Origin: an uncultured Spirochaetota bacterium
GTDB taxonomy: Bacteria > Spirochaetota > Spirochaetia > SZUA-6 > Fen-1364
Reading direction: 5' to 3'
Length of the DNA stretch: 64,000 nt
Assembly (NCBI GenBank): GCA_963734545.1
Contig: CAVTHO010000008.1
Span: 812,643 to 876,642 of the forward strand
Part shown: positions 28,037 through 47,704 of the stretch, in pieces
How the letters are laid out: every line of letters starts with the position of its first letter
How positions within the stretch are numbered: position 1 is the stretch's first letter
Made by a program: the position numbers and the translations under genes
Notes under the pieces: generated by a model
The model's input: the letters and a program-made list of their open reading frames with translations, nothing else
Told to the model about the DNA's origin: nothing
The model's database searches: none

Positions 28037-28894
28037 ATGCGAACGCCCGCAGGAGCCGTTGCTTTCAACGCGGCGGCTGTCATCACGCTCCTGCTCATCG
28101 CCTCCGCGGCCCTTGCCCTCGCTCTCTTCCTGACCGTGCCGCGCACCGCCGAGCCCCTTCTCTCTCTTCCTGACAATACATGGTGGTTCATCTACCACGA
28201 CCCGCCGCAGGGAGGCGCGCCGGCTGCCCTCTGGCGCATCGGCGCAGCCATGGCGACGGCATGCGTTGCGGCTGCCGCGTCATTTCGCGCCTACGCTCTC
28301 TTCCGGCGGACCGGTTCGATGCTGTTTCCGGCCCTCATGCTGTTTCTCTTTTCCCTCGGCCCGGAGTGTCTTCGCGCCGGAACCGCGTACCTGTATGCGA
28401 TTGACGGCTCGATCTCCGCGGTTGTCGTTCTGACCAGGATGATCTACTGGGCCCGGTTCGTGGGCCTGCTGGGGCTGCTGCTCACGGGCCTGTACTGCAT
28501 CGACTTCAAGTACAAGAGGTATGGCGTGCTCACCGCGGTCATATTCCTCGTCTCATTCGCCATGGCCGCGTACATCCCCGTGGACCGGACGGTGTTTCTC
28601 ACGCAGCTCACCTGGAAGCTGGGAGACGAGCAGGGGGTCTGGTTCGTGAGTCTCACGATAGGCGCCCTTGCGCTTTGCACCGCTGCTGCCGCTGCCCCTG
28701 CCAAGCGGGACGGAAGATACCTCTGGCTCGCGGCCGGTCTCGCTCTCCTTCTGGTGTCGCGAGAGCTCCTCTTCTTTGGCGCGAATCCGGTGATCCTCGG
28801 AGCAGGCCTGGCCGCATTGAGCGTGGGGATCGTATTGTGTCTGCGAACGGTCTCGACGCTCTCCGCTGCCGCGGCTGAGAGAAGCGCCGATTAA
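28037..28894 (+). CDS. Hypothetical multi-pass membrane protein
   Basis: 285-aa ORF with about 8 hydrophobic segments. Confidence 0.75.
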   Translation: MRTPAGAVAFNAAAVITLLLIASAALALALFLTVPRTAEPLLSLPDNTWWFIYHDPPQGGAPAALWRIGAAMATACVAAAASFRAYALFRRTGSMLFPALMLFLFSLGPECLRAGTAYLYAIDGSISAVVVLTRMIYWARFVGLLGLLLTGLYCIDFKYKRYGVLTAVIFLVSFAMAAYIPVDRTVFLTQLTWKLGDEQGVWFVSLTIGALALCTAAAAAPAKRDGRYLWLAAGLALLLVSRELLFFGANPVILGAGLAALSVGIVLCLRTVSTLSAAAAERSAD

Positions 28895-28900: not shown

Positions 28901-29545
28901 CTAGGGCACGATAAGCTTTGCCGCCACCATTCCCACGCCAAAGGGGATGATGATGTTGTCGAAATTGCCCGCGGGGATCCCTTCCAGGAATGTCGCGGCA
29001 GCGGCCACGATGAGCGCATCAGCAGGATTCGAGGTGATGCCGAACGTGACAATGAAGACCGCGGCGAAGCATGCGAAGCTTCCGGCCACTGTCTTGCCGT
29101 TCAGGAACGGAATCCGCGGCCCCTTGACCACTGTGCCGACCAGGCTTGCGAAGCCGTCCCCAAAGGCGAGGGCGAAGATGGCGATGGAAGCAGCGGGAAG
29201 CGGATACAGCAGCAGGGAAAGCAGGGCACCCAGACCGAGGGTGACCGGACCCAGAACGAACCTGTCCATGTCCCTTTCACGGGCGGCAATGAGCGTCAGA
29301 TCGCTCACCACGAGCACGGGGTTGCCCTGACGGCGCGAAGCCTCGGCAAGGGAATAGAAGATGGTTCCCATGGCCAGGAGGGCTATGGTTGCCGGAAGAT
29401 TGACGGCGGCCAGAACAGGGACGAGGGCAATGAGGAGGTGAAGTGACTTCCTGACCATCTCCCCTTGAAACCTGGCGGCAACTTGAGTACCTTGTGTCTG
29501 TCGGCTTTCGGCTTGTCGTAGCAATTCCGGTCTTTCCTGCATCAT
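28901..29545 (-). CDS. CTP-dependent diacylglycerol/polyprenol kinase family (SEC59/DGK1/VTE5)
   Basis: EMVRKSLH, FGDGFASLVG, KTVAGS, FDNIIIP. Confidence 0.82.
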   Translation of the reverse strand: MMQERPELLRQAESRQTQGTQVAARFQGEMVRKSLHLLIALVPVLAAVNLPATIALLAMGTIFYSLAEASRRQGNPVLVVSDLTLIAARERDMDRFVLGPVTLGLGALLSLLLYPLPAASIAIFALAFGDGFASLVGTVVKGPRIPFLNGKTVAGSFACFAAVFIVTFGITSNPADALIVAAAATFLEGIPAGNFDNIIIPFGVGMVAAKLIVP

Positions 29546-29796: not shown

Positions 29797-29826
29797 TTGA
29801 CAGCAAACCCAGCGCCGATGTACTTT
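29797..29826 (+). promoter_or_regulatory. Sigma-70 promoter of tRNA-Val
   Basis: TTGACA-18-TACTTT. Confidence 0.65.
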
Positions 29827-29841
29827 ACCAGCAGATTTTCG

Positions 29842-29915
29842 GGGCGATTAACTCAGCGGCCCAGAGTGCTACCTTCACACGGTAGAAGTCACTGGTTCAA
29901 ATCCAGTATCGCCCA
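29842..29915 (+). tRNA. tRNA-Val (CAC), CCA not encoded
   Basis: GGGCGATTAACTCAGCGGCCCAGAGTGCTACCTTCACACGGTAGAAGTCACTGGTTCAAATCCAGTATCGCCCA cloverleaf with anticodon CAC. Confidence 0.93.
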
Positions 29916-29928
29916 TATTGAGCGAGCC

Positions 29929-31390
29929 ATGAGTGATCTGGGCGCGTACGATGCCATCGGGCTGGGCGAGCTTGTCCGCAGGCGAAAGGTTTCCCCCGCG
30001 GACCTCCTGGAGAACACGATCCGCCGCATCGAGGCGGTCAACCCGAGCCTGAACGCAGTCATCTGCACGCTCTGGGACCGGGCCCGGGCGGAAGTGAAGA
30101 AACGCACGGAAAAGGGTGCTGCCTCCGGCGAGCGCTTCCCCGGCGTTCCCTACCTGTTGAAGGACCTCCTGACGGACATGCAAGGCGCGCCATTCGCTGA
30201 CGGGTCCCGGTTCGTGCATGGCCACGTGTCCGCAATCGACAGCGAGCTCGTCGAGCCGGACTCGCAAGAGCGGTCTTGTCATCGCCGGAAGGACGAACAC
30301 GTCAGAGCTCGGCGTGCTCACCACCGCGGAGCCGCTTCTCTACGGCCCGGCGCGAAACCCATGGAACCTCAGGTTGACAACAGGGGGATCCAGCGGCGGA
30401 TCGGCAGCCGCCGTTGCGGCGGGCATGGTGCCGATGGCCCACGGCAACGACGGCGGCGGCTCCATCCGCATCCCCGCGTCCTGCTGCGGAGTGTTCGGCC
30501 TGAAGCCGACCCGGGGCCGCAACAGCCTGGGGCCGCTGTTCGGAGACTTCGCCCATGGCATCGTTTGTGAGCATGCCCTTACCCGCACGGTGCGGGACTC
30601 CGCGGCTCTGCTCGACGTCACCTCGGGCGCCGTCCCCGGTGATCCCTACGTTGCCCCGGCCCCCGCGCGGCCCTTCCTCGAGGAAGCGCGCCGAAGCCCC
30701 GGCCGGCTGAAAATCGCTTTCCTCTCTCGCGTGCCCGACGGCTGGAACGAGGAGACGGCGCTGCATCCGGATTGCGCGGCCGCCGTGCACGATGCCGCTC
30801 GGCTCTGCGAGTCCCTCGGCCATACGGTGGTGGAGGCAGACCCGGCCGCCCTTGCCTGGCCCGACCTGCCCCGGCGTTTCATCACGATTTTCTCATCCTT
30901 TGTCGGGCACTCGGTGGCGTACTGGGAGCGTACGCTGGGGAAGTCAGTGACACGGGAGGATCTGGAGCCGGTGACATGGGACTTGTACCAGGCGAGCCAG
31001 GGGATCACCAGTGCCGCCTACCTGGTAACGTGGGAGGAGCTGCAGCGCTTCTCACGCAAGGTGGCATGCTGGTACCGGGACGGCGGGTGGGATGTCCTCC
31101 TGTCCCCCACGATGCAGGTCCCTCCGACGGAACTCGGGTCCTTCGACCCGTCGCCCGGCGATCCGGGGAAATCGATCAGGCTCGCGCTGTCTTTCGTCGC
31201 TTTCACGCGCACGCAGAACATCACCGGGGATCCGGCCATGTCCGTCCCTCTCTACTGGAACAAGGACGAGGTGCCCATCGGGGTGCAGTTCGCGGCGCCC
31301 TTCGGCGCCGAGGCGACGCTCTTCCGGCTCGCCGCGCAACTGGAGAAGGCGCGGCCGTGGGCTGCGCGGAGGCCGCCCGTGCACTGCTGA
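29929..31390 (+). CDS. Amidase-signature family amidase (one apparent frameshift, ~30256)
   Basis: GVPYLLKD in the first frame; [20 protein letters not shown] and [12 protein letters not shown] in the second. Confidence 0.88.
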
Positions 31391-31429
31391 GCCGCCCCTC
31401 GAGCAGCGCCGCATAGAATCCACGCTGCT

Positions 31430-31468
31430 CCTGCAATCCTTATTGCGGGCCGCAATCTGTATTGCAGG
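31430..31468. promoter_or_regulatory. Tandem palindromes GCAAT-N4-ATTGC, candidate upstream activator sequence
   Basis: GCAATccttATTGC (31433-31446) and GCAATctgtATTGC (31452-31465), about 100-135 bp upstream of the predicted sigma-54 start site. Confidence 0.65.
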
Positions 31469-31540
31469 CCGCGCGTGTGTATCGAGCCCCACCTCTTACG
31501 CTAATTCTTTACAAATAAAGCAATTGACAAATGCCCGATG

Positions 31541-31557
31541 TTGGCATGCCCCTTGCT
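31541..31557 (+). promoter_or_regulatory. Sigma-54 (-24/-12) promoter of the lipid operon
   Basis: TTGGCAT-GCCCC-TTGCT, near-consensus TGGCAC-N5-TTGCW; AT-rich IHF-like tract at about 31501-31531. Confidence 0.75.
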
Positions 31558-31569
31558 TTGTCTCTTGTC

Positions 31570-32547
31570 ATGATGAAGAACATATTGAAGTTCCTGAAAG
31601 AGTACGTAAAGTCGATGCGGCTCTACTACTCATTCGTCACGGGCATCGCCGGCTGGATCGGCATCACCTGCTATGAGTATTCCGCCGACCTTCCGACCTC
31701 GGGAGCCGGCGCAAGAAAACTCGTCATTCTGGTACTTGCGTTCCTGGGCTGGGGAATAAACCAGATCGTCAACGACTACCTCGGTCTGCCGGAGGACCGA
31801 ATCAACGCACCCCGGCGGCCCATGGTCACAGGAGCCCTCGACCCTCGGAAAGCTCTGCTCCTCTCGTCGTTCCTCATGCTTGGTGCTGCTGTGGTCACCT
31901 GGCTTTTCCTGGAGCCCATTGCGATCGTGTTCCTCCTGGCAGGAGTCATGCTGAACGTGCTGTACGAAAAGGCGAAAGGATACGGCGTCTGGGGCAACAT
32001 CGTTTTCGGCCTGATGATCTGCATGGTGACCCTGTACGGCTTTTTCGCGATGGGCCCCGTCCATGGATTCCGCTGGCTGTCCCGCATCCTGCCGGTGCTT
32101 GCTCTCCTTTGCACGATCAACGGGCTCATGACCCTGTACACGTATTTCAAGGACTACTCCGGGGATCGACGAACCGGGAAAAGAACATTGATTGTCATCT
32201 GGGGGCTGAAGAGATCGAGGATCTGCGCCTTCGCAGGGGCCTTTCTGCCGCTGTCGGTGTTCGTTCTCCTCATGGCTGCCAACAAGCTCCCCATCCACAT
32301 TGGCGCCGAGTTCATGCTCCTCGGCTCGCTGGCCCTGGCCCTGCAGATCTGGACAGGAGCTCTCTTCTATTTGAAGCCCGTCGGAAAGGCGACGTACACA
32401 TCCCTGGGAGTCAATTTCAAGGCGTGCGTATGCGCGGAAGCCGCCCTGCTGTCACTGTTCGACCCCCTGCTGGGCGTTCAACTCTTCGTCATTTCGTATT
32501 TCGCCGTGACCTTTCTCTTCTTTCTGCACAAAAACGCCAAGGCCTAG
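31570..32547 (+). CDS. UbiA-superfamily prenyltransferase (DGGGP synthase/chlorophyll synthase-like)
   Basis: NQIVNDYLGLPEDRINAPRRPMVTG and FKDYSGDRRTGKRTL Asp-rich motifs; multiple TM helices. Confidence 0.88.
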   Translation: MMKNILKFLKEYVKSMRLYYSFVTGIAGWIGITCYEYSADLPTSGAGARKLVILVLAFLGWGINQIVNDYLGLPEDRINAPRRPMVTGALDPRKALLLSSFLMLGAAVVTWLFLEPIAIVFLLAGVMLNVLYEKAKGYGVWGNIVFGLMICMVTLYGFFAMGPVHGFRWLSRILPVLALLCTINGLMTLYTYFKDYSGDRRTGKRTLIVIWGLKRSRICAFAGAFLPLSVFVLLMAANKLPIHIGAEFMLLGSLALALQIWTGALFYLKPVGKATYTSLGVNFKACVCAEAALLSLFDPLLGVQLFVISYFAVTFLFFLHKNAKA

Positions 32548-32558
32548 AGGAGGAAGTG

Positions 32559-33776
32559 ATGATCGCGCTTCAGCCGGCACGGATCGGCGCAGTGGTACTG
32601 AAGAACAGGATAGTCCGTTCGGCAACGTACGAAGGTCGATGCGACGATCATGGATTTCCGGATGAAAGCTATCGAGACCTGTACGCGGAGCTGGCGCGCA
32701 ACGAGGTCGGAGCGATGATCACGGGTTTCACCTATATCACGCGTTCCGGCAGAGCCATGCAGCCCCGGCAAGCGGGGATCGAGAACGAGTCCAAGATTCG
32801 ATTCTACCGGGAAGTCACCCGTGCGGTGCACAGCCATGACGGCAGGATATTCATGCAGCTTGCTCATACGGGGCGGCAGACCTCGCGCCAGGCAACGGGT
32901 GAAGAAGTTGCAGGAGCCAGCGGGAAACGGTCTCGCTACTTCAATCAGAAGCCCCGGTCACTTGAAGCGCGTGAAGTCCTTCGGATCGTGGAGCAGTTCG
33001 CCGACTCCGCGGTACGCGCCATGCAGGCCGGGTTCGACGGCATACAGCTCCATGCGGCACATGGCTACCTCATTCACCAGTTCCTTTCACCCGCCATCAA
33101 CACCAGGAAGGACTTGTTCGGCATCGACAGAGAATCTCGGCTGGGAATCCGCTTCCTCGACCTGATCATCGACTGCATCAGGCAGAAGTGCGGACCGCAC
33201 TACCCCGTCCTGGTGAAGATCAGCGGCGGGGATGACGGCCGAAACGGCATGTCCGAGACTCGGCTCGTACGACTGATTCACTTCCTCAACACCAAGAAGG
33301 TGGATGCGATCGAGATCAGTTGCGGCACCATGGAACGTCCACTGGATATCTTTCGCGGCGCCAGCATTCCGCTGGACGTGATACTGCGCTGCAACCCGCG
33401 ATACAGGATTCCGGGCGCACTCCGGCGTTCTCTCTGGAAGACCCTGGCCGCGCCTTTCATTCTGGCCCGAACAAGGCCGCTCACCCCCGCGTACAATCTC
33501 CACTTCGCCGAAACGGCCAAGAGGCATTCGGACGTCCCGATCATCAGCGTGGGCGGCTTCCGCAGCGGCGGCCAGATCGAGTCGTCCCTCGCCGACGGCA
33601 AGACGGACTTCATCGGTTTGTGCAGGCCCCTGCTGTGTGAGCCTGATTTCGTACAGAGACTGAAGGAGAACAACTCCTACGTCTCGCGATGCGTCAGCTG
33701 CAACGTGTGCGCAGTTCTCTGCGACACGCGAAGTCCGACGCGATGTCATTTCGGGGAGGCAGTCCATGAGTATTGA
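32559..33776 (+). CDS. NADH:flavin oxidoreductase (Old Yellow Enzyme family) with C-terminal Cys cluster
   Basis: KNRIVRSAT, QLAHTG, GFDGIQLHAAHGYL..QFLSP, CRPLLCEP, CVSCNVC..C. Confidence 0.9.
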   Translation: MIALQPARIGAVVLKNRIVRSATYEGRCDDHGFPDESYRDLYAELARNEVGAMITGFTYITRSGRAMQPRQAGIENESKIRFYREVTRAVHSHDGRIFMQLAHTGRQTSRQATGEEVAGASGKRSRYFNQKPRSLEAREVLRIVEQFADSAVRAMQAGFDGIQLHAAHGYLIHQFLSPAINTRKDLFGIDRESRLGIRFLDLIIDCIRQKCGPHYPVLVKISGGDDGRNGMSETRLVRLIHFLNTKKVDAIEISCGTMERPLDIFRGASIPLDVILRCNPRYRIPGALRRSLWKTLAAPFILARTRPLTPAYNLHFAETAKRHSDVPIISVGGFRSGGQIESSLADGKTDFIGLCRPLLCEPDFVQRLKENNSYVSRCVSCNVCAVLCDTRSPTRCHFGEAVHEY

Positions 33777-34017
33777 AGAGCGGGTCATATCAGTGGTGCG
33801 AGAAAATCTGGAGAACGGCAGAGAGATCCCCATCACCCCGGGGAGCGAGCTGGTGAAGGATCTGGAAATCGATTCCGTGAGCGCCCTGACGATCCTTTTC
33901 GGTCTGGAAAAGGAGTTCTCCGCTTCTCTGCACGAATCGATGTTCGGCAGCTGCAAGACCGTTCACGACGTCATCGCCAGCCTCGAAAGACAGTTGCCGC
34001 AGCTGCGGGGAGGCTGA
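33766..34017 (+). CDS. Acyl carrier protein
   Basis: 83 aa, acidic, DLEIDSVS phosphopantetheine motif, LEKEF, KTVHDV. Confidence 0.88.
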   Translation: MSIEERVISVVRENLENGREIPITPGSELVKDLEIDSVSALTILFGLEKEFSASLHESMFGSCKTVHDVIASLERQLPQLRGG

Positions 34018-34018
34018 G

Positions 34019-35200
34019 ATGAGCACACCGGGTTATCTCGAGCAGCTCACGATCGACAAGAGCCTCGCGGAAACGCTGAACTTCAACCCGTATTATCAGG
34101 TCCTGCGATCCGGTCTGGGAGACCCGATCAGAGTCGGCGGCGAAGAGTTCATCAACCTCGCTTCGAACAACTATCTCGGCATCGGCAGCTCGGACAGAGT
34201 CAAGAAGGCCATGATCGACGGCGTGCAGCGATATGGCGTCTCCATGTGCGGCACTCCCATTGCAACCGGCTATGTCGATGCGTTTGCCCGGCTCGAGCGG
34301 AGACTGGCCGGGTTCGTCGGTCTGAAGGATTCCACCGTATTCCCCTCCTGCTATCAGGCGAACCTCGGCGTCTTTTCCGCCATCGCGAGGAAGGAAGATG
34401 CGATCATCTTCGACCACTATGCGCATTCGTCCCTCGTGAGCGGCATCAGGGCGGTGGGATGCAGGGCGCTGGCATTCCTTCACAACGATACTCGCCATCT
34501 GGAGAAGCTCCTGCAGAGCACATCGGGCTGCCGACAGACCTTTGTCGTGACGGAATCCGTGTTCTCAACTGAAGGGAGCATCGCGCCGTTTCGTGAGATC
34601 GTTCAATTGTGCGCCGCGCATGACGCCATTCCTGTCGTTGATGACTCCCACGGCATCGGCGTGCTCGGAAAGAACGGGCGAGGAATACTCGAGGAGCAGA
34701 ATATCGAGAGCTACCCGGGCATCTACACGGCCTCCCTGGGCAAGGCGCTCGCAAATTTCGGAGGAATGGTCGCCGGCAGCGCGAACCTGATCGAATACCT
34801 GCGGTATGCCTGCCCCGCTCTCATCTACTCCACGGCCCTGCCGCCTTCGATCCTGCTGGGAATAGAGGCGGCCCTCGACATTGTCGAAGAGGAATTCACG
34901 GTGCGGGCCCGGCGGATGTGGAGATACAAGAACCTCGTATCCTCCCGGCTTCAGGAGCTCGGCTTTTCAGTCATTGCCGGCGAGGCGCCGATCACATCTG
35001 TGGCCTGCGGCGGGCTTGCAGACACGCTGCGCTTCGCCCGGGAGCTCTACTCGCAGAAGATTCTCGCCACGCCGTTTGTCCCCCCCTCTGTCCCGCCGAA
35101 CATGGGCAGAGTCCGGCTCATCGCCGGGGCAGACCTGCAGGAGTCTTCCGTCCAGCGGGCTCTGGATGCCTTTTCCCGGATCGCAGAGGGACGATCATGA
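34019..35200 (+). CDS. PLP-dependent alpha-oxoamine synthase (serine palmitoyltransferase/BioF/KBL family)
   Basis: NLASNNYLG, DHYAHSSL, HND, TESVFSTEG, VDDSHGIG, SLGKAL (PLP Lys), PPSVP..RVR. Confidence 0.9.
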   Translation: MSTPGYLEQLTIDKSLAETLNFNPYYQVLRSGLGDPIRVGGEEFINLASNNYLGIGSSDRVKKAMIDGVQRYGVSMCGTPIATGYVDAFARLERRLAGFVGLKDSTVFPSCYQANLGVFSAIARKEDAIIFDHYAHSSLVSGIRAVGCRALAFLHNDTRHLEKLLQSTSGCRQTFVVTESVFSTEGSIAPFREIVQLCAAHDAIPVVDDSHGIGVLGKNGRGILEEQNIESYPGIYTASLGKALANFGGMVAGSANLIEYLRYACPALIYSTALPPSILLGIEAALDIVEEEFTVRARRMWRYKNLVSSRLQELGFSVIAGEAPITSVACGGLADTLRFARELYSQKILATPFVPPSVPPNMGRVRLIAGADLQESSVQRALDAFSRIAEGRS

Positions 35201-36168
35201 AGTACTTCTTCGTCCTGAATCCGGGCTCCGCGGGAGGGAAGAGCGGACGTCGGTTTTCCTCTGTGCACGAAGCTGTCACGCGTCGGCGCGTCAGGTTCGA
35301 TTTCGAGATTTGCCGCAGCCTCGACCACGCGTGCGACCTGTCGCGGATGGCAAACCGGTCAGGGTACGACGTCGTCGTTGCCGTCGGAGGAGACGGCACC
35401 ATCAATCAGGTGCTCAACGGATTCTATGACGAAAGGGGCGGGCGGATCTCGGATGCCTCGCTGGGGGTCCTGCATACGGGAACGAGCCCTGATTTCTGCA
35501 AGAGCCACGCCATCCCGTGTCAACTCGAGAGCGCCCTGGAGCTGCTTTTCGGAGGATGCACGAAGAAGATCCCTGTCGGCAGGATCACGCTGGCACGGCA
35601 GTTCGAACCGGCATTCGATGGAAAACCCGTATCGGACGACGCTCTCTTCCACACGCGGTACTTCGCGTGCTGCGCCAATATCGGCCTGGGAGCATCTGTG
35701 GCCCGCTGCGCAAACAACGGAATCAGGAAACGGCTCGGAGACTCTCCGGGCACTTTCATTGCCATCCTGAGAAGCCTGGCCCGGTTCGAACAATCCTCCT
35801 TCACGATCGTCCGTGATGGCAAAGCCCAGACCATACCCCGGCTCGTCAACCTGGCAATCGGAAAGACCTTCCACGTTGCCTCCGGCATCAAAGTCAGGAG
35901 CGAGCTGCGCGAGCATGATCGGCGCTTCTACTGCCTTGCTCTCCACGATCTGCGGATGGTCGATGTCGTGCCCTGCCTCGTGTCGCTCTACAGCGGGAGG
36001 ACGATCCAGGGCACGGGATACGCGGAGCTCGGGTACTGCTCGTCGATCCAGGTCCTGGGAAACAGCCGGTATCCCGAAGTGGAATACGACGGAGACCCCC
36101 AGGGATTTCTCCCCTGCCGCATCGAGACGGCTGCTGACGAGCTCTCCGTGATCGGAAAGCCATCATGA
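35197..36168 (+). CDS. Diacylglycerol/sphingosine/ceramide kinase family lipid kinase
   Basis: LNPGSAGG, VGGDGTINQVLNG, TGTSPDF, EYDGD; ATGA overlap with the AOS gene. Confidence 0.88.
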   Translation: MKYFFVLNPGSAGGKSGRRFSSVHEAVTRRRVRFDFEICRSLDHACDLSRMANRSGYDVVVAVGGDGTINQVLNGFYDERGGRISDASLGVLHTGTSPDFCKSHAIPCQLESALELLFGGCTKKIPVGRITLARQFEPAFDGKPVSDDALFHTRYFACCANIGLGASVARCANNGIRKRLGDSPGTFIAILRSLARFEQSSFTIVRDGKAQTIPRLVNLAIGKTFHVASGIKVRSELREHDRRFYCLALHDLRMVDVVPCLVSLYSGRTIQGTGYAELGYCSSIQVLGNSRYPEVEYDGDPQGFLPCRIETAADELSVIGKPS

Positions 36169-37193
36169 GCGTCGAGAAGAGCCTCATCGAGTTGATCGAC
36201 CACATTCTCCCGAAGGACCCGACGTGCCTGACCAAATGCTTCGAAGCAGATGCCCAGGTCATCAGGCTGGGCACCGGGACATTCGTCTTTTCGACTGATG
36301 GATTCTCGCACGAGGACCTGCTGCAGGAGAAAGATCCCTTCCGCCTTGGCTGGAACGTCGCGGTGGGCGCAATCAGCGACATCCTTGCCGTCGGCGGCGT
36401 GCCTCTGCTCTATGCGCACACGATGAGCATCGAGCCCCGGTGGAACGCGGCCTTCATTGAGAGATTTTCCAGAGGGGTGGCCAGGGCGCTGGAGTTGTCC
36501 GGGATCACCTTCATCGGGGGTGATCTCGGAAGGTCGGGAGAATGGAAGTATGCCGCCTCGGTGATCGGCACGCTGGCGGGAGAGCCGGTGCTCAGAAAGG
36601 GCGCATCCGAAGGAGACAGCATCTACCTTTCCGGCGAGGTCGGCGCCGGCAACCTGGAAGCGGCCATGAGCCTGTACGCCCGCAGGGTGGGATGTGCCGC
36701 GGCGGCGGGCAGGATCTGCGGCAGGTTCCACCTCCGCCTCTCGGAAGCCAGGCTCATGAAAAAGTACGCGACATCCGCAATCGACACCAGCGACGGCGTC
36801 TTTGACGCCCTGAGCACGTTGTCTGAGATAAATGGTACCGGCTACGTCGTGGAGAATCTGCCGTACCTCCGGCGGGGAGTCCTGCTCGCGAAGCTCCTCG
36901 CGGTGCCCCCATCCCTCCTCTTCTTCGGCGGATGCGGCGAGTACGAGCTTCTCTTCACGGTCAAGAGAGAAGAGGAGGCGGCGTTCCTGTCGGAGGCGCG
37001 GGAAAAAGGGCTGAGGTTCTACCGGCTGGGCGGAATAACCGGCGGGAAATCTCCGCAAAAGATTCTGCGGGAAAACGGCGCGCGCATCGATCTGTCACAG
37101 GTGAGCATGTCGGCCCGGGACTTCGGCACTGCGGAGGAGTACCTGGAGAAACTGCAGGCGATGGTGGAGGGACTGAAATGCCAAGGGTCGTGA
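36165..37193 (+). CDS. ThiL-like (PurM/AIR-synthase superfamily) kinase
   Basis: STD, AISDILAVGG, IGGDL, LRKGASEGD, AIDTSDG, GEYELLFT; diverged from canonical ThiL. Confidence 0.82.
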   Translation: MSVEKSLIELIDHILPKDPTCLTKCFEADAQVIRLGTGTFVFSTDGFSHEDLLQEKDPFRLGWNVAVGAISDILAVGGVPLLYAHTMSIEPRWNAAFIERFSRGVARALELSGITFIGGDLGRSGEWKYAASVIGTLAGEPVLRKGASEGDSIYLSGEVGAGNLEAAMSLYARRVGCAAAAGRICGRFHLRLSEARLMKKYATSAIDTSDGVFDALSTLSEINGTGYVVENLPYLRRGVLLAKLLAVPPSLLFFGGCGEYELLFTVKREEEAAFLSEAREKGLRFYRLGGITGGKSPQKILRENGARIDLSQVSMSARDFGTAEEYLEKLQAMVEGLKCQGS

Positions 37194-38446
37194 TCACGGG
37201 CATCGGAATCCTGACCTCGCTCGGAGTCGGGAAGGATGAGTTCATGCGGAACCTCTTTCTGCAGAAAACTCCTCTGGCAGCCATACCCGCCTCTTTTGAG
37301 AAGCATTATTCCTTTACATCCAGGTTCTATGTTCCGTTCTCGGTTCCCGCCCTGAACGACTATGGCATCCCGTCGCATCATCAATGCTTCATGCAGGACG
37401 CTCACAAGATCGCCGTTATTGCCGCGAAACTGGCTCTCTCGGACGCGGGGTTCTTGATTTCCAGTGACGGGCGATCCTTCAGAATCGAAGAGCTCGCGGA
37501 TTGCGGCGTCTGCATCGGGATGGGCTTCCTGGGGATGCGCGAGGGCTTCTCATCATACCTCGCCCACCTGGCCGGCGAGGACGGGCCGCCGTTTTCCTGG
37601 ATCTCGAAAAGCGTCCGGTTCAACAGGCTGATCATCCCGGTCATGATGCCCAATTCAGTGTCGGCATGGATTTCGATCCTGTTTCATCTCAATGGAAGCT
37701 CCTGCACCGTGAATGCCTCCTGCGCGTCGGGAACGCTGGCCATCGGCGAGGCATTCAGGAGGATAAAGGACGGATACGAGACGGTGGCCCTGGCAGGCGG
37801 GGTGGAATGCCTGAAAGACGAATGCGGCGGCGTGATGCGCGGGTTCGATGTTCTCGGAGCGCTCACCCGGGCGGAAGACGGCAGACCGTTGCCCTTTTCA
37901 GGCCGGAGAAGCGGCTTTCTTTTTTCGGAGGGCGGCGGATGCATCCTCGTCCTGGAAGAGCTCGCGCATGCGCGAAGTCGCGGCGCTTCGATATATGCTG
38001 AAATCGCCGATTTCAGGTCAAACAGCGACGCCTGCAGCATTCTCCAGATGGAGGGGAGCGGGGCGCAGATCAGGAGACTCCTGAAGGACCTGAAAGGCGA
38101 TCGGACCATCGACTATCTGAACTCCCACGGCACGGGAACGGCGGCAAACGATTCGATCGAGGCGCGAGCCATTCACGAGGTCTTCGGCAGCAGAGACGCG
38201 CAGCCGTTCATCGACGCGACAAAAGGGATACTTGGCCACACCGTGGGAGCCAGCGGAGCCATAGAGGCCGCCGTGGTGGCGCTGTCCATCAGGGAATCCA
38301 GGATTCATGGCAGTGCGGTACCTGACCCCATCCCTGATCTCAATCTCGCTTCCTGCAATCAGAGCTTGCCCATCACGTACGCCATCTCGACATCCTACGG
38401 GTTCGGAGGGCACAACGCCGGACTCCTCTTTCGGAGGTATGGATGA
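37178..38446 (+). CDS. Beta-ketoacyl-ACP synthase (FabF/FabB-type)
   Basis: RVVITGIG; Cys-His-His triad in ASCASG, NSHGTGT and GHTVGASG; SYGFGGHN. Confidence 0.92.
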   Translation: MPRVVITGIGILTSLGVGKDEFMRNLFLQKTPLAAIPASFEKHYSFTSRFYVPFSVPALNDYGIPSHHQCFMQDAHKIAVIAAKLALSDAGFLISSDGRSFRIEELADCGVCIGMGFLGMREGFSSYLAHLAGEDGPPFSWISKSVRFNRLIIPVMMPNSVSAWISILFHLNGSSCTVNASCASGTLAIGEAFRRIKDGYETVALAGGVECLKDECGGVMRGFDVLGALTRAEDGRPLPFSGRRSGFLFSEGGGCILVLEELAHARSRGASIYAEIADFRSNSDACSILQMEGSGAQIRRLLKDLKGDRTIDYLNSHGTGTAANDSIEARAIHEVFGSRDAQPFIDATKGILGHTVGASGAIEAAVVALSIRESRIHGSAVPDPIPDLNLASCNQSLPITYAISTSYGFGGHNAGLLFRRYG

Positions 38447-39497
38447 TGGACCGTGTCATGATCACCGGCGCCACCGGTTTCATCGGGAGTCACATCACCC
38501 GCGCGTTCATCGGGCATGGCGTGAAGGTGGGCTGTCTCGTGCGGCGATGCAGCGATCTCGCGAATCTCGAAGGGCTGAACGTCGAGCTGCGGTATGGGGA
38601 CATTCGGGACAGAGAAAGCCTGGTCAGCGCTTTCAAGGACTATGACGCGGTCATTCACAATGCCGCCCTCGTTGCCGACTGGGGGCCATACAGGGATTTC
38701 TACCAGACCAACGTGCGGGGCACGCTCAATGTCATGGACGGCATGCCTGCAGAACGGTATTGAGAAGATCATCATGGCAGGCTCCAACGCCGTGTATGGT
38801 GAGGAAGACTGCAGGACATCAAAGAACGAGGATTCACCTCTCAATCCCCATTACCGCTATTTTCTCGGGAGAATTGTTCCCTGCAAGCTCAACTATTACC
38901 GGGACACCAAGACCCTGGCAACGGTCCTCGCTTCGGACTACGCCCGGAAGTTCGGGCTGAACCTCACGATTCTGGATCCCGGTGTGGGTGTACGGCGAGC
39001 GGGAGCTGCATACCGGCTTCTACGAGTACCTTCGCTCGGTACAAGGCGGGATGATCGTCACGCCGGGATGCAGACGCAACAAGTTCCATGCCATTTATGC
39101 GGGAGATCTGGCAGAGGCGTATTACTGTGCGTTCCGCAAGGGAGTGAGCGGTGTCAGAAGGTTTATCATCGGCAATGAGCGAGCCGAGCGAATGTCCACA
39201 ATCTACGGGCTTCTCTGCCGTGAAGCTCGGCTCAAGCCGCCGCGAAACCTCCCCAAGTTCATTTTCTACCCGGTCGGGCTTCTCATGGAAATCCTCTGGA
39301 GCGCGCTGGGTTTCGCGGCGCCGCCGCTGCTGACCCGGGGAAGGGTGAACCTCTTCTACGACAGCATCACGTACTCCGTGGAAAAGGCGAAAAAGATGCT
39401 CGGCTTTGCGGGCACGTACTCCCTGGAGGAGGGCATCGCAAGGACCGTGTCCTGGTATCGAACAAATCACCTGCTGCAGGGGAGGGAAAAACCATGA
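38443..39497 (+). CDS. Extended SDR, NAD-dependent epimerase/3-beta-HSD-like reductase (two apparent frameshifts, ~38740 and ~38980)
   Basis: ITGATGFIG, HNAA, TNVRGT; GSNAVYG and YRDTK (YxxxK) in the second frame; WVYGE and KAKKMLG in the third. Confidence 0.85.
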
Positions 39498-40795
39498 TCG
39501 ATCCTCGAAGCGTATCCGGTCTCGCCAAGCACGTTTTCAATGCAAAATTGAAGCTTGTCATTTTCTTTCGCTTCATGCGCCCTCTGATCACAGGGGAGCT
39601 GTCTCCGGCCCGGTTCATCCTGCTCCTGAGGAGGCTGCTGTATTTCTTCTCTCGACTCCAGAGCAACAAGTTCGTTCGGATCGGGAAACAGACGCGAGTC
39701 GATCTCTATGTCCCGTTTTTTCCCACGAAGGCATTCTTCGCTGCCTGCCGCAAGTTCACGACCTTCGGTGAAAAGCTGCCCTGCACGACCGCCCTCATTT
39801 CAGTCACTTCGGCCTGCCGCTTCAACTGCAGCCACTGCTACCAGAAGATGGACCGTGGAAAGGACGTGGATATCGGACGGCTGGTTCAGGTGGCGGCAAG
39901 GCTGCAGGAGAAGGGCATTGCTTTCTTCAACATCGAAGGTGGTGAACCGTTTCTCGTGTTCGACCGTCTCAGGAGAGTATGCGCGGCAATCGATGACCGG
40001 TCGGAGGTATGGGTGAACTCCACCGGCGACGGAATGACTTTGGAACGGCTCCGGGAGCTGAAAACGCTGAATCTCACCGCCGTCATGTTCTCTCTGCATT
40101 CGCCTGTCCCTGATGATTTCAACGCTTTTCTGGGATCTGAGAGAGCCTGGGCCACGATGCTGAACGGGGTCCATCTCTGCCATCAGGCCGAGGTGCCCGT
40201 GGCGTTCAATATGTGCCTGCAGAGAGAAGGCTTCTCTGACGGGACTTTCGAGCGGCTCATGGACAAGGCCAGGGAGCTCGGGGCGTCGATCATCCAGCTC
40301 ATCAAGCCGAAGCCCTCGGGAGGATGGCTGCGCTGCGGCGTGGAGGAGTTCCGGCCGCAGGACGTCATGCGCATGAAAACCCTGGTCAGTGACTACAACA
40401 CCAGGCGCGAGTACGGAGATTTTCCCTCGATCTCAGCACAGATGCTCGAGGAAGATCCGTCGCGCTTCGGCTGCACGGCGGGAGGAACCGATCGGTTCTA
40501 TATCAACGCGAAAGGGGATCTGCAGCCCTGTGAGTTTCTGAACCTGTCTTTCGGGAATATCGCCACGGACGACTTCGACACAATCTATGACACCATGAGA
40601 AGCTGCTTCGAGAGGCCCGGCGTGAACTGGCTGTGCGAGAAATGCGCCGGCAGCGTCCTCCAGCGTGTCACGAGCCATGACCTGCACTCCCTTCCGCTCG
40701 ACCCAGGGCTCTCCAGGGAAGTCTACGGGTCCTGGGATCGGGGCAGTCCGACGGAGCTCTATGACACCATCGAGAACAGGTTGAGCCCCCGTTGA
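39494..40795 (+). CDS. Radical SAM protein with SPASM/twitch-like domain
   Basis: CRFNCSHC, GGEP, GCTAGG..FYINAKGDLQPCEF, later Cys residues; N-terminal extension. Confidence 0.9.
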   Translation: MIDPRSVSGLAKHVFNAKLKLVIFFRFMRPLITGELSPARFILLLRRLLYFFSRLQSNKFVRIGKQTRVDLYVPFFPTKAFFAACRKFTTFGEKLPCTTALISVTSACRFNCSHCYQKMDRGKDVDIGRLVQVAARLQEKGIAFFNIEGGEPFLVFDRLRRVCAAIDDRSEVWVNSTGDGMTLERLRELKTLNLTAVMFSLHSPVPDDFNAFLGSERAWATMLNGVHLCHQAEVPVAFNMCLQREGFSDGTFERLMDKARELGASIIQLIKPKPSGGWLRCGVEEFRPQDVMRMKTLVSDYNTRREYGDFPSISAQMLEEDPSRFGCTAGGTDRFYINAKGDLQPCEFLNLSFGNIATDDFDTIYDTMRSCFERPGVNWLCEKCAGSVLQRVTSHDLHSLPLDPGLSREVYGSWDRGSPTELYDTIENRLSPR

Positions 40796-40838
40796 TTGAA
40801 GCTCTCCATGCGGGCCGTTCTCCTGAAGTCAAGAGTCG

Positions 40839-43800
40839 TCAGCTGGAGCTGGCGAACGCCGAAACGAGGCCACCCACGTAATCCTTGACCGGCGGAGAGC
40901 TCCACATGCCGGATTCCTGACCGCGGCGGAGCAGCTCGAGGATCTCCGGCCCTTCTTCCACGAAGATGCGGAGGTATCCCTCAGGCTGCGCCAGCCCTAC
41001 AGCTTCGCTCAGAGCATCAAGGGCATCCCCCTGGGCGGAAGCCGAGGCCCTTGCTTTCGCCTGGAGGACGAGGATCTCGATGAGGGGACCAATGCGTCCT
41101 CCCGACCGCGCAGAGAAGGCAAGGTCATCGAGCAGGCGCGAGATGTCGGCCGAGCCCGGGTCCGTCACACCGGCAGCCAGGCGAACCCGGGCCAGGCAGA
41201 TGAGCTCCACCTCCCGATTCACAGGACTCGCCGCTTTCCCCGGCTTGTACTCGCGCATCCACGCCTCGGCAGCTGCGCTGTCCCCGCACGCGAGATACGT
41301 CTTCACCCTGTCGGCCTCGAAAATCGGCAGGAGCGTGGCATGGATGAGGGCGCGCCGCGGAAGCGATTGTACTTTCGCAAGCTCCTCCTGCGCCCGCGCG
41401 GCCTGTCCACGCGATCGGAGCACGCGCGCCAGCGACTGGCGGGTGAGATACACGTCGGAGGGCAGGCCCCACGCCTCCACGTCCTTCACCGCTTTTTCGG
41501 CAATCCTCAGCGCGTCATCAAGCTCGCCTCGTTCCCTCTTGAGCTCAGCCATCAGGGCATACACTTTGGCGATCGGCCCGCTCCCGCGCGCGTGGCGCCG
41601 CCCCGCCAGGGCATCGAACTCCTCCAGCAGGGCCAGCGCATCGCGGAGCCGGCCCTGAAGGCGGCGGAGATGCGCAAACTCGTACACCGCGCTGGCGATC
41701 GACCAGATGCTTCCGGCGGCATGGCTCGCCCGCAGAAACTCCTTGCAGCCCTCCTCGGCTTTTTCCAGCTCTCCCTGGTAGCGATAGGATTTTTCCAGGA
41801 TATAGAGGATCAAAGTCCTGGGCATATCTTCCTTCGGGGGCAGGAGCCGGTCAGCCCTGCCGGCGAGCTCGACGGCCTCCGCGGTCTCCCCTGCCATGTC
41901 GGCGAGAACGGCCCGGATGATTGCCACGGTTCCCTCGAGGGTCCGGATGCTGTCGGAATCCTTCCCGGCTTCGGAAATACTCTTCTCCGTCCGATCCAGC
42001 AGAGCCTCGGCCTCCTGCCGTCGTCCCGCCCATGCCAGGGTCCAGGCAGCGGCCATGCAGTGTCCGGGGCGTTTCTCCATCACCTCCGAGGGGATCTCCC
42101 TGCACCAGCGCTGCAACTGGCTCAGCGCACCCTGGCCGATGATATCGAAGAACCTTGCCTCGATGAGGTCCGCGGCTTTCTCGTGGGCCTCTGCCGCCAG
42201 GTATTCCTGGATCGCCTCGACGAGCTCCCCCTGTCCGGCAAACCAGTCGCCCGCCCTGATGTGGAGTGCATGAATCTTCTCGGGAAGCCGCTCGAGCTCC
42301 AGCTTGTGCCGCAGCAGGTCGGCGAAGAGGTGGTGGTAGCGAAACCAATTCCTCTGCTCGTCCAGGGGGACGAGGAACAGGTTCATCCGCTCCAATTGCT
42401 GCAGGGTCTCCTGGCATCCACGCCGTCCTGTCACCGCTTCGCACAACCCGGCGCTCATCCTGGTCATGATCGAAGTATCGAGGAGAAGCTGCTTGAGGTC
42501 TTCGTCCAGACGGGAAAACACCTCCTCGGCAAGATATTCCAGGATGTAGCGTTGAGTTCCGCTGAAAGACGCGATGAAGCCGTCCACGTCCTCCCGTCCC
42601 TGAAGGGAGAGAGCCGCCATCTGCAGCCCCGCAACCCAGCCTTCGGTCCGCTTCTCCAGCACGGCGACCTGGGCCGGGGAAAGGGACAGGGACATTGCCC
42701 GATCGAAGAATTGCTCGGCCTCGGCGGCGGTGAAACGCAGATCTTCCGCGCGAATTTCCGCAACGCGGTCCTGCGAGCGCAGGCGCGCGAGCGGAAAGGG
42801 CGGATCGGCACGGCTTGCAATGAAGATGCCGAGCGACGCAGGCCTGTGGTCGATCAGGAACCGCACCGCTGCATGGACCTCCAGCGTGTGGATGAACTGG
42901 TAGTCGTCAAGGACCAGGGCGATGCCCTTCCCCTGCTCCTCGATGGCGTTGATCAGGGCGGTCATGACGAGCTCTGCCGGGGCGGGCGGCGTGGCCCGCA
43001 GCATCTGGCTCGCCTCCTCCCCCACGCCCTCCCCGGTCCTCATGATCGAAGCTGCGAGGTGGAGCAGGAAGCGGGGGAGATCATTGTCTCCCTCATCGAG
43101 TGAGAGCCAGGCGACAGGCATCCCGGCCCGCGCAGCCAATTCAGAAAGGATTGTCGTCTTGCCAAAACCAGCCGGAGCGGATACGACCACCAGGCCGCGC
43201 GCCAGGCCCTGCTCGAGGAGGCGGATGAGCCTGCCTCTTCTGACCATTCCATCGCGAACGGGTGGAACCGAAAGCTTGGTGCCGAGCAGGCCCGGGAAAA
43301 GATCTGCGCCCTGCGCGGGCGGCTGCACCGCTCGCGGCTCTTCGATCCGGTGAGCTGCGCATTCGACTCTCCGGGCCCGGCTCGCGGTGTGTCCTTCGTT
43401 TTCTCCCGCGGTCCGATCTGACGGGACAGGATCTGGTTGTAGAGGTCCCGGGTCCCCTTTTCCGGTTCCTGGCCAAACTCTCCCCGCAGCGCCTCGGCAA
43501 ACTCCTCGTACTGCCTGATGGCGGCGCTTCGCTGACCCGAAAGCGCAAGCGTCTGTATCAGCAGGGCCTGGGCCTGCTCGTGCATCCTGTCCTGCGCAAG
43601 CCAGCGCTTCACCGACTGGAGAGCATCTTCCCAGCGCTCGGCCGCGGCGTGACAACGGGCAGATCTCTCGAGAAGCCACCCGAGCTCGGCTCTCAGGCTC
43701 TCCCTTTCCGCCACCTGCCAGTCGTCGAACCCAGGGCAGCCAGGGAGGTTGAAGCCTTCGAGGAACTCGCCCTGGAAGAGCCGTATCGCATTCACCACCC

Positions 43801-44191
43801 GCTCGAGGCACTCAGGGCACCGCTCCCCTGATTCGTGAGGATGGGCCTTTACATCCGCGACAAGCCGCCGCGCGGCACGCACGTCGATCCACAGGTCCGC
43901 GTCCGACCGCACGCTTATCCTGTCCCGCTCTGGCTCCAGCCAATCCCCGGGAATGCTCGCGTGGAGCGAGGCGAGGCTCCGCCGCAGGTTCGCAGGAGCG
44001 CGATTCTGGTCGAATTCCGGCCAGAAGAGGGCCGCCAGTTTCTCCCGCGATTGGGGATGCTCGTTCAGACTGAGATAGGCAAGAAGGGCGGTGGTCTTTC
44101 GCGTTTCGAGCCGCACGTGGCTGCCGGAGAGCTCGACTCGAGGGTGACCGAGCCAGTAGAGCCCCAGGCGCGGCCCGCTTCCCTGCTTCAC
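40839..44191 (-). CDS. SARP/BTAD plus MalT-like ATPase-TPR transcriptional regulator (one apparent frameshift, ~43350-43400)
   Basis: N-part: LLAYL..REKLAALFWP, BTAD (GEFLEGF, FDDW). C-part: TKL..P, APAGFGKT, LVLDDY, TEGWVAGL, WFRYHHLF, TPRs. Likely GTG start 44191. Confidence 0.82.
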
Positions 44192-44278
44192 AAACTGATA
44201 TTGTACACGCCGCTGCGGCACGGGACAAGACCGGGAGCATAGTGTGATAGAATGGCCTGCCGGACGAGGAGTAGAGTC

Positions 44279-46078: not shown

Positions 46079-46092
46079 TTGCAGAATCCATC

Positions 46093-46707: not shown

Positions 46708-46711
46708 CGTG

Positions 46712-47593: not shown

Positions 47594-47626
47594 CTTCATT
47601 CCTCCCACGGTTGTAAGATACGCTGC

Positions 47627-47673: not shown

Positions 47674-47704
47674 TAACAGGCGCGGGGAAGGGGTGAAGCG
47701 AGGG

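Follow-up and report, generated by a model that had tools for sequence, protein, structure and literature searches.

The 64,000-nt stretch of DNA analysed here (the window), from an uncultured Spirochaetota bacterium, carries a tightly packed, same-strand run of genes in the order UbiA, OYE, ACP, oxoamine synthase, DAGK-type kinase, ThiL-like protein, KAS, SDR and radical SAM protein (Table 1). The kinase start codon (ATG at 35197) overlaps the TGA of the oxoamine synthase gene and the ThiL-like start codon (ATG at 36165) overlaps the kinase TGA, both as ATGA. The original prediction, of a DAGK-family kinase coupled to a diverged ThiL-like gene within an operon that includes UbiA and lacks thiamine genes, agrees with this arrangement, but it had overlooked the 83-aa ACP. 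The GC content of the run (0.58–0.61) is slightly under the 0.60–0.67 usual in the window, which is on its own too weak a sign of transfer.

Table 1. Cassette genes in the window, with the profile matches that define them.
Feature	Coordinates	Strand	Remarks
UbiA-family transferase, first cassette gene	31531–32547	+	Pfam UbiA 91.7 bits
Old-yellow-enzyme type FMN oxidoreductase (OYE), C-terminal Cys cluster	32559–33776	+	Pfam Oxidored_FMN 180.4 bits
Acyl carrier protein (ACP), 83 aa	33766–34017	+	PP-binding 26.1 bits (cut-off 20.8)
PLP-dependent alpha-oxoamine synthase (BioF/Kbl/Spt family)	34019–35200	+	Aminotran_1_2 143.4 bits
DAGK_cat/YegS_C soluble lipid-kinase family protein	35197–36168	+	323 aa; DAGK_cat 78.1 bits (cut-off 23.6), YegS_C 28 bits (cut-off 27)
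ThiL-like protein, cassette-specific, PurM superfamily	36165–37193	+	342 aa; thiL model, fold match, separate clade
FabF-like beta-ketoacyl synthase (KAS)	37178–38446	+	ketoacyl-synt 102.6 bits, Ketoacyl-synt_C 77.7 bits
Extended SDR (epimerase/3-beta-HSD type) ketoreductase, three frames here	38443–39497	+	Pfam Epimerase on pieces
Radical SAM/SPASM protein, last cassette gene	39494–40795	+	Radical_SAM 59.2 bits, SPASM 25.2 bits

The oxoamine synthase scored 311.6 bits with bioF, 279.7 with Kbl and 247.6 with Spt, reaching no NCBIfam cut-off, and is about equidistant from solved Kbl, BioF and SPT structures, with the SLGK lysine and the DDSHG motif conserved. For the DAGK-type kinase, whose GGDGTIN and DGDP motifs are invariant in 15 rows and whose nearest solved proteins are DgkB and YegS, the NCBIfam lipid kinase models gave at most 72.6 bits, all under cut-off, and do not fix the substrate class. 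The NCBIfam ACP models likewise stayed under their cut-offs (up to 38 bits), and in 44 of 72 loci an ACP-like ORF immediately precedes the oxoamine synthase gene. The OYE has YqjM-type ene-reductases as its nearest solved proteins and a conserved C..CN.C motif near its C-terminus; the KAS scored 246.8 bits with the fabF model (cut-off 493.75) and conserves its Cys and two His. The SDR, covered by tblastn from residue 21 to 366 in three frames, has an intact orthologue in genome G019 that is nearest to HpnA (149.5 bits), SdmB and OleD; in this region, related short-read contigs carry one base fewer at 38739 and another fewer at 38978 or 38981. The radical SAM protein conserves CxxxCxxC, its only solved relative is SkfB, and an ESM Atlas search with it returned generic radical SAM/SPASM clusters only.

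The ThiL-like protein combines the N-domain Pfam match and the two-domain fold of the PurM superfamily. The AIRS domain scored 59.2 bits, above the cut-off of 24, and the AIRS_C match was weak (19.2 bits, below 23.1; the G019 orthologue reaches 31.8 bits). Among NCBIfam models the protein is matched best by thiL (TIGR01379), which spans its full length with 127.4 bits (cut-off 184.15); SelD gave 50 bits and HypE 28, so that across the two domains no family is nearer than ThiL. The AlphaFold2 model (mean pLDDT 88.4) had the ThiL of Aquifex aeolicus (3c9t) as its top fold match, with TM scores of 0.72 and 0.79. The SelD and HypE matches (0.71–0.72) nearly equal the ThiL level, within a range of 0.65–0.72 for SelD, HypE and PurM. 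PDB chains matching at E ≤ 0.001 numbered 107, and among the matches listed all belong to the PurM superfamily. Identity to solved ThiLs is about 22–26%.

At the residue level, D29, D45, D72, D207, D210 and S209 are invariant in 14 rows, and in an alignment that included 1vqv and 3mcq the invariant Asp residues fall on those of the DV, SDV and DISDG motifs of A. aeolicus ThiL, which, following the ThiL literature, we take to be metal- and ATP-binding. With these catalytic aspartates kept, the protein probably functions as an ATP-dependent kinase. The two motifs that the original prediction had singled out, AISDILAVGG and GCGEYELL, are both present in the translation and differ from those of solved ThiLs, which read VSDVIANGG or ISDMAAMGA and GGEDYQLL or GGDDYEL at these places. 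A passage in PMC6416309 describes an N-terminal I-G-D-x-D (IGDD) loop of ThiL that contacts the nucleotide; the cassette family reads FE[AS]D there. The family also has an invariant set of its own, comprising W63, W93, W127, Y129, R144, R191 and R318. Thus, compared with ThiL (TIGR01379; 3c9t, 1vqv, 3mcq, 5cc8), the cassette protein shares the two-domain fold, the motif aspartates and the GG(E/D)YELLFT region, whereas it differs in its score under cut-off, its own clade, the FE[AS]D loop, its own Trp, Arg and Tyr residues and its lipid-type surroundings. A search for fused forms gave a single 781-aa ThiL-like–KAS protein (P0122) on one 2.6-kb contig, too slight a basis for any conclusion.

The separateness of this family was seen in a tree from a quick maximum-likelihood search, in which 28 cassette ThiL-like rows (SH-aLRT 99) and 15 canonical ThiL rows (97) were separated, on long branches of 2.9 and 2.7 changes per site. 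The thiL model also separates them, scoring 120–149 bits with the cassette copies (7 of 7) versus 253–315 bits with canonical copies. Scanning genomes gave 218 relatives of the ThiL-like protein. Among 81 loci inspected, at least one cassette neighbour was present at 79, the remaining two being too short or cut to tell, and no thiamine gene was seen beside the ThiL-like gene, whose neighbours were always cassette genes. The gene therefore belongs to an old, separate paralogous branch of ThiL-like enzymes that is found only inside the cassette, in keeping with the prediction of a diverged paralogue with a non-thiamine role.

One opposing view is that the protein is simply the thiamine-phosphate kinase of its host, carried in an unrelated operon. 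The host genome (89% complete) gave no other ThiL-like match and no canonical thiL; hundreds of family members are named thiamine-monophosphate kinase in public databases; and canonical thiL was also not found in three cassette-bearing Bacillota genomes with thiE and thiamine pyrophosphokinase (TPK), which leave room for a moonlighting role as TMP kinase there. Against this view, besides the score under the curated cut-off, the separate clade and the strict linkage to a lipid cassette, the cassette copy occurs together with a canonical thiL in genomes G019 and G031, and among 18 congeners of the host none carries the cassette protein, compared with 10 that carry canonical thiL (266–300 bits). 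Furthermore, TPK is above its cut-off in the host (G000), as it is in G032, G033 and G034, and thiE was not found in the 89% complete host genome; neither a TPP riboswitch in the window and four loci nor a riboswitch of any kind in the window was found. The separate canonical thiL for which the original prediction proposed a check was thus not found, which goes halfway to the refutation that it had named; the presence of TPK and the failure to find thiE account for the cassette protein being the sole match. Because of the separate clade, the co-occurrence with canonical thiL in some genomes and the host TPK without thiE, a thiamine role is unlikely; we hold it highly probable that the gene is dedicated to the cassette and give the host-kinase view very little credence.

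The operon as a whole, of eight to nine genes, is a conserved mobile cassette common to anaerobic bacteria of many phyla. All eight larger genes occur in 57 of the 81 inspected loci, 48 of them in the order of the window and 9 in one circular permutation; as the loci were located via the ThiL-like protein, its gene is in every one. They come from more than 12 phyla, among them Bacillota, Bacteroidota, Omnitrophota, Latescibacterota, Cloacimonadota, Verrucomicrobiota, Acidobacteriota, Thermodesulfobacteriota and Fusobacteriota. In 62 loci the kinase gene adjoins the ThiL-like gene, with a start/stop overlap in 37 of them and a gap of at most 30 nt in 19; in Bacteroidota-type loci the two lie at opposite ends of the operon. 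Inside the cassette, the OYE gene is missing from two loci (L025 and L062) and the KAS gene from four (L030, L042, L093 and L101). A predicted complex of the DAGK-type kinase and the ThiL-like protein, both supplied as alignments, scored 0.00 (mark 0.32) and counts neither for nor against an interaction. A search of sequencing runs listed no RNA run.

The nearest NCBIfam models of the UbiA-family enzyme are those of the prenyltransferase/DGGGPS group (70–75 bits) and then ChlG (55 bits), all far under their cut-offs, and its only solved relative is the archaeal digeranylgeranylglyceryl phosphate synthase DGGGPS (6m31, 42.6 bits). The first Asp-rich motif reads NDYLGLPED (ND-YL-G-LxED in the family) in place of NDIFDIEID in DGGGPS, so that Gly takes the place of the central Asp, as it does in at least 95% of 69 rows of the family, and the second motif, D-Y-x-G-D (D..GD..G), is kept. 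The Asp-to-Gly change would fit an unusual diphosphate substrate; the kinship with DGGGPS would be just as compatible with a phospholipid acceptor. None of the cassettes was found to contain a polyprenyl synthase, as the original prediction had stated for this operon; the host matches lie at three loci on contigs C3, C9 and C7 and not on C8, and two of the four other host UbiA genes are located 4–18 kb from such a synthase. Little weight attaches to the missing synthase in the operon, given the three loci elsewhere in the host.

Three known systems resemble the cassette in part. In phytol salvage, phytol kinase and phytyl-phosphate kinase act before a chlorophyll or tocopherol prenyltransferase, and the logic of two successive kinases supplying a lipid diphosphate to a UbiA-family enzyme would be the same; however, the two plant enzymes are membrane proteins of unrelated families that act on an allylic isoprenoid, whereas the cassette kinases are a soluble DAGK_cat protein and a PurM-type protein, and the chain probably comes from the ACP, oxoamine synthase and SDR. 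DGGGPS is the closest solved protein and NCBIfam model group for the cassette UbiA and has the second motif in common with it, but the match is 42.6 bits only, the first motif carries Gly, the hosts are anaerobic bacteria, and the cassette has no G1P or GGGP synthase genes. The bacterial sphingolipid pathway uses Spt, a dedicated ACP, bCerS, CerR and a DAGK-family ceramide kinase. Similarly, the cassette has an ACP beside an alpha-oxoamine synthase, an extended-SDR lipid ketoreductase and a DAGK_cat kinase; unlike that pathway, it adds UbiA, the ThiL-like protein, radical SAM, OYE and KAS. The three Spt models scored 247.6, 220.1 and 160.1 bits against cut-offs of 640, 500 and 670. According to a passage in PMC11334938, the Spt, bCerS and CerR genes co-localise; in the cassette this set is incomplete, and no ceramide synthase or N-acyltransferase was found among its nine gene families.

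A two-kinase route to a lipid diphosphate is our tentative best explanation, with a probability that falls somewhat short of even; all its substrates and the order of its steps are inferred. The ACP would bear an acyl chain, which the KAS would lengthen in cassettes that have one, and the oxoamine synthase would couple the chain with an amino acid to give an amino ketone, which the SDR would reduce to a sphingoid-like amino alcohol. The DAGK-type kinase would then phosphorylate a hydroxyl, and the ThiL-like enzyme, acting with ATP and Mg as ThiL does on thiamine phosphate, would add a second phosphate to form the lipid diphosphate. This would be handled by the UbiA-family membrane enzyme with its altered diphosphate-binding motif, and the OYE and radical SAM enzyme would tailor the product. 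A sphingoid-like amino alcohol as kinase substrate, as originally proposed, fits the ACP, oxoamine synthase and OleD/HpnA-like SDR encoded around the kinase. In favour of the diphosphate are the kept aspartates of a likely active kinase, ThiL as nearest family and best fold, the adjacency of the kinase and ThiL-like genes, the UbiA Gly and the failure to find a polyprenyl synthase in any cassette. Against it stand the activation of carbonyl oxygens by PurM, PurL and HypE of the same superfamily, the nearly ThiL-level fold similarity of SelD and HypE, the separated kinase genes of Bacteroidota-type loci and the replacement of the IGDD loop by FE[AS]D. A further objection would be chemical, as a diphosphate on a saturated primary carbon would be a poor electrophile for UbiA-type chemistry.

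As a sub-case of the two-kinase route, the amino-alcohol diphosphate could itself be the alkyl donor, its non-isoprenoid chain being transferred as an electrophile by a UbiA with a remodelled site onto a host acceptor, which would make the cassette an unrecognised lipid pathway of anaerobes. This would give a role to all three enzymes, and would suit both the Gly in the first motif and a cassette that has no polyprenyl synthase when two of the other host UbiA genes lie near one. However, to our knowledge, characterised UbiA-family donors are allylic prenyl diphosphates or PRPP; the host is able to supply prenyl diphosphates, the cassette has no acceptor-making gene, and the type of OYE points to enone reduction, which would remove allylic activation. 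We therefore regard donor use of the diphosphate as doubtful. Reciprocally, the phosphorylated amino alcohol made by the kinase could be the acceptor, like GGGP for DGGGPS, and UbiA would O- or N-prenylate it using a prenyl diphosphate of the host; the ThiL-like enzyme would act later on the head-group phosphate or on another intermediate. The nearest UbiA relatives, DGGGPS and chlorophyll synthase, transfer an ordinary prenyl group to an oxygen of a phosphorylated or carboxylated, polar-headed acceptor, so this alternative fits where the kinase makes the acceptor, and a self-contained mobile cassette could draw on universal FPP, with three polyprenyl synthase loci in this host. On this view, however, nothing would require the ThiL-like enzyme, whose gene is in every locus (the loci having been found through it), the cassette has no head-group transferase to use an activated diphosphate and the altered Asp-rich motif is left unexplained; on balance it seems rather unlikely.

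A different chemistry would follow if the ThiL-like protein acted as PurM or HypE do, phosphorylating a carbonyl or amide oxygen with ATP to drive cyclisation or dehydration of an amino-ketone-derived intermediate, with no diphosphate ester being formed. The shared superfamily and fold, the N and O nucleophiles offered by an amino ketone or alcohol from the oxoamine synthase, and a pocket that the invariant Trp, Arg and Tyr set would have remodelled are consistent with it; but ThiL is clearly highest in sequence similarity over both domains, and the cassette has no N-acyltransferase that would create an amide, which makes this option improbable. Two further candidates were set aside. A pyrrole-forming route by KAS and oxoamine synthase, as in prodigiosin biosynthesis, was rejected as a general mechanism since the KAS gene is missing inside the cassette in four loci, and prenol salvage, with both kinases acting on a free isoprenoid alcohol, was given no separate weight as there was no sign of a prenol source.

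The label thiamine-monophosphate kinase on hundreds of these proteins misleads vitamin B1 reconstructions in anaerobes. As unexplained operons go, the cassette is one of the more strictly conserved that we know, with the same gene order from Bacillota to Omnitrophota and Bacteroidota, and we know of no pathway in which an oxoamine synthase, two different kinases, a UbiA enzyme and a radical SAM enzyme work together. Our literature search, which did not extend to supplementary files, turned up no account of the cassette, nor of a ThiL paralogue with a non-thiamine role; the lipocone paper (PMC12419801) has no bearing on it. The product could be a new membrane lipid of anoxic sediments, peat and wetlands, with consequences for lipid biomarkers. 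It would also bear on the many Spt-like genes of anaerobes without ceramide synthase neighbours, described in a passage of PMC11334938. If the diphosphate does serve as donor, no earlier UbiA enzyme would have a donor that is neither prenyl nor ribosyl, its partner would act on the first non-thiamine substrate of a ThiL-type kinase, and more than 200 species would make an ether- or N-alkyl-linked lipid or cofactor of a new class. Since the cassette has cultured carriers, namely Desulfosporosinus species and Petroclostridium sp. X23, the question is directly testable.

The tightly packed plus-strand gene run at 31531-40795 constitutes an operon of nine genes. The original prediction had described within it a DAGK-type kinase coupled to a diverged ThiL-like protein, and this was confirmed by the gene junctions as well as by Pfam and thiL model matches. 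The kinase ATG at 35197 overlaps the stop codon of the upstream gene and the ThiL-like ATG at 36165 overlaps that of the kinase, both junctions reading ATGA. The kinase product (323 aa) matched DAGK_cat with 78.1 bits and YegS_C with 28 bits, and the ThiL-like product (342 aa) matched AIRS with 59.2 bits and AIRS_C weakly, below the cut-off, with 19.2 bits. Among the curated models, the ThiL-like protein was best matched over its full length by thiL (TIGR01379) at 127.4 bits (cut-off 184.15), with SelD (49.6 bits) and HypE (28.4 bits) far lower. The previously listed UbiA, kinase and ThiL-like genes were all present, and an 83-residue acyl carrier protein (ACP) had been overlooked. None of the nine genes reached an NCBIfam equivalog cut-off, which marks all of them as divergent within their families. 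The oxoamine synthase is at roughly equal distance to Kbl, BioF and Spt, an intact orthologue of the SDR is closest to the lipid ketoreductase types HpnA, SdmB and OleD, and UbiA is closest to DGGGPS and then to chlorophyll synthase.

Genes of the cassette and the two regulatory genes beside it (window positions)
Feature	Position	Strand	Remark
UbiA	31531-32547	+	cassette gene
OYE-type FMN reductase	32559-33776	+	closest to YqjM-type ene-reductases
Acyl carrier protein, 83 aa	33766-34017	+	PP-binding 26.1 bits vs 20.8
PLP-dependent alpha-oxoamine synthase	34019-35200	+	
DAGK-type kinase	start 35197	+	DAGK_cat, YegS_C
ThiL-like protein	start 36165	+	AIRS; thiL TIGR01379 best model
FabF-like KAS	37178-38446	+	
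Extended SDR	38443-39497	+	read in three frames
Radical SAM/SPASM protein	39494-40795	+	
MalT-like regulator, 990 aa	40839-43811	-	in 14.7-kb interval
Hybrid histidine kinase	44252-46078		in 14.7-kb interval

The conservation of catalytic residues was assessed on 14 diverse members of the ThiL-like family, with a mean column identity of 59%. D29, D45, D72, D120, D207, S209, D210 and the block G(E)YELLFT were invariant in all 14 rows; all of these Asp and Ser residues except D120 align to those of the ThiL motifs in the structures 1vqv and 3mcq, and D120 lies opposite Asn in 1vqv and Asp in 3mcq. The diverged motifs quoted in the original prediction were recovered in the protein, with their canonical versions at the aligned places of the solved ThiLs. 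The ThiL loop I-G-D-x-D, described as a nucleotide contact in PMC6416309, is replaced by F-E-[AS]-D in the cassette family, which also has its own invariant residues (W63, W93, W127, Y129, R144, R191, P233-Y234 and R318). A confident AF2 model (pLDDT 88.4) had A. aeolicus ThiL as its best fold match (TM 0.72/0.79), with SelD and HypE close behind. From alignment and model we read the ThiL-like protein as a probably active enzyme that depends on ATP and Mg and whose substrate pocket has been remodelled. Signature residues are likewise kept in the KAS (Cys-His-His), oxoamine synthase (PLP lysine), kinase (GGDG), SDR (YxxxK) and radical SAM (CxxxCxxC) families. The UbiA family keeps the second Asp motif, whereas its first motif, NDyLGlkED, carries Gly for the central Asp of the DGGGPS motif NDIFDIEID.

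A large protein collection yielded 593 ThiL-like relatives at E<=1e-10, many of them automatically named thiamine-monophosphate kinase, and a scan with one genome per species gave 218 loci, the best 80 of which were inspected together with the locus of G019, a relative of the host (n=81). All eight larger genes were found in 57 of the 81 loci, 48 in the window order and 9 in one circular permutation (ThiL-like, KAS, SDR, radical SAM, UbiA, OYE, oxoamine synthase, kinase); the 24 partial loci were mostly truncated by contig ends. Cultured carriers of the cassette include a Desulfosporosinus species and Petroclostridium sp. X23. The genes truly absent from inside a cassette were KAS (4 loci) and OYE (2 loci), which therefore fall outside a core of UbiA, ACP, oxoamine synthase, kinase, ThiL-like, SDR and radical SAM genes. 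An ACP-like ORF lay immediately 5′ of the oxoamine synthase gene in at least 44 of 72 loci; the shortness of the query makes this a minimum. The kinase gene stood directly 5′ of the ThiL-like gene in 62 loci, with a start/stop overlap in 37 and a gap of <=30 nt in 19, as estimated from alignment-based start positions. The only genes recurring outside the cassette were lineage-specific regulators, labelled from their sequences: an XRE-like ORF (~150 aa) upstream of UbiA in 23 loci, mostly of Bacillota (L027-L046 and others), and a MarR-like ORF (~170 aa) before the cassette in 6 Omnitrophota loci (L048, L049, L061, L068, L075 and L082). Genes for transporters, prenyl synthases or head-group transferases did not recur beyond the cassette among the inspected loci. 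The same 6 Omnitrophota loci carry a small membrane protein gene after the radical SAM gene. One metagenome protein (P0122, 781 aa, on a 2.6-kb contig) joins ThiL-like and KAS parts in a single chain (AIRS, AIRS_C, ketoacyl-synt N and C) and could be a genuine fusion or else the result of a read-through gene call.

The possibility that the ThiL-like protein is the true thiamine-phosphate enzyme was weighed by genome comparison. The original prediction was to fall if this protein were the only ThiL of its genome and also phosphorylated TMP efficiently, and the first half was borne out: in the host assembly (89% complete, 10 contigs) no separate canonical thiL was found, no thiL-model match exceeded the cut-off, the best match was the ThiL-like protein itself, and it was followed by SelD and PurM, whose identities were each confirmed with 338.9 bits. 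The comparative evidence nevertheless points the other way. Canonical thiL (266-300 bits) was detected in 10 of 18 same-genus genomes, with fragments in two more, and the paralogue in none of the 18. Its sole orthologue among 30 relatives (49% identity) is in G019, a member of another family in the host's order, which carries a canonical thiL (297 bits) besides the cassette copy. Among five further cassette-bearing genomes, canonical thiL was present in G031 (253 bits) and, in two adjacent pieces, in G035, and only the cassette copy in G032, G033 and G034. These three genomes and the host have thiamine pyrophosphokinase (TPK) above the cut-off. The three also have thiE, and their cassette copy may have a side activity on TMP; thiE was not found in the 89% complete host assembly, so the host probably makes no TMP. 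No riboswitch was detected in the window and four loci searched, and a quick maximum-likelihood tree separated 28 cassette proteins (support 99) from 15 canonical ThiLs (support 97) by long branches. We thus consider a thiamine-phosphate role very improbable. No canonical thiL was found in the congeners G006 (97% complete) and G017 (92%) either, so, with 10 of 18 congeners having one, the thiamine diphosphate route seems to differ among members of the genus.

Above the level of family membership, we infer the functions of the cassette. The combination of ACP, oxoamine synthase and SDR follows the logic of sphingoid-base synthesis, and lipid alcohols are substrates of DAGK_cat kinases. The ThiL paralogue would then add a phosphate to the phosphomonoester made by the kinase, giving a diphosphate, as ThiL does on TMP. 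By this analogy, such a two-kinase route explains most economically why a ThiL paralogue would stand beside a DAGK-type kinase, and we give it somewhat less than even chances. That UbiA uses this diphosphate as its donor, as originally proposed, would give a role to all three enzymes and would fit the altered UbiA diphosphate motif, but it requires an activated carbon, and the OYE suggests enone reduction and not a retained allylic system; we regard it as unlikely. An acceptor model, in which UbiA would prenylate the phosphorylated base, agrees with the kinship of UbiA to DGGGPS and with the three polyprenyl synthase loci of the host, but gives the ThiL-like step no evident purpose, and it is somewhat unlikely. 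A carbonyl activation of the PurM/HypE type by the ThiL-like enzyme is compatible with the fold and seems distinctly improbable. Full-text searches of the open literature gave no account of the cassette, nor of any ThiL paralogue with a non-thiamine role; section 20 of PMC11334938 mentions anaerobe Spt-like genes that lie beside neither bCerS nor CerR, for example in 33 Cloacimonadota MAGs.

One extra base near 38739 and another near 38978-38981 put the SDR gene of the window into three frames. The G019 orthologue aligns without loss across residues 21-366. In each of three short-read wetland metagenomes, contigs (95-99% alike) lack a base at 38739 and a second at either 38978 or 38981, and near relatives therefore carry an intact gene. 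The additional bases in the window stem either from faulty assembly or from mutation in very recent time. The amidase gene upstream of the cassette (29797-31390) lies in two overlapping frames, one ORF matching Pfam Amidase positions 1-85 and the second one positions 83-444, which looks like another single-base frameshift, and a polyprenyl synthase at G000:C7:705991-706552, in the same host assembly, is split alike. These two cases favour assembly errors for the SDR bases and suggest that the assembly is indel-prone.

Two flanking stretches, the amidase (29927-31412) and the region 46097-49235, have counterparts of 92-93% identity in G014, the closest congener. The distance between these flanks is 14.7 kb in the window (31412-46097) and 6.2 kb in G014 (locus L110, on contig G014:C28), whose intervening segment gave no match of >=200 bp to the window; thus the cassette, the MalT-like regulator and the hybrid histidine kinase are located in a variable island, which is consistent with horizontal spread. 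The multi-pass membrane proteins encoded just upstream, at 28037-28894 (+) and 28901-29545 (-), had no Pfam or NCBIfam match. A tRNA gene lies at 29842-29915, ~1.6 kb upstream of the cassette, and its 3′ end is the exact point at which synteny with G014 is lost: the upstream flank is found on G014:C8, whereas G014:C28 carries the amidase.
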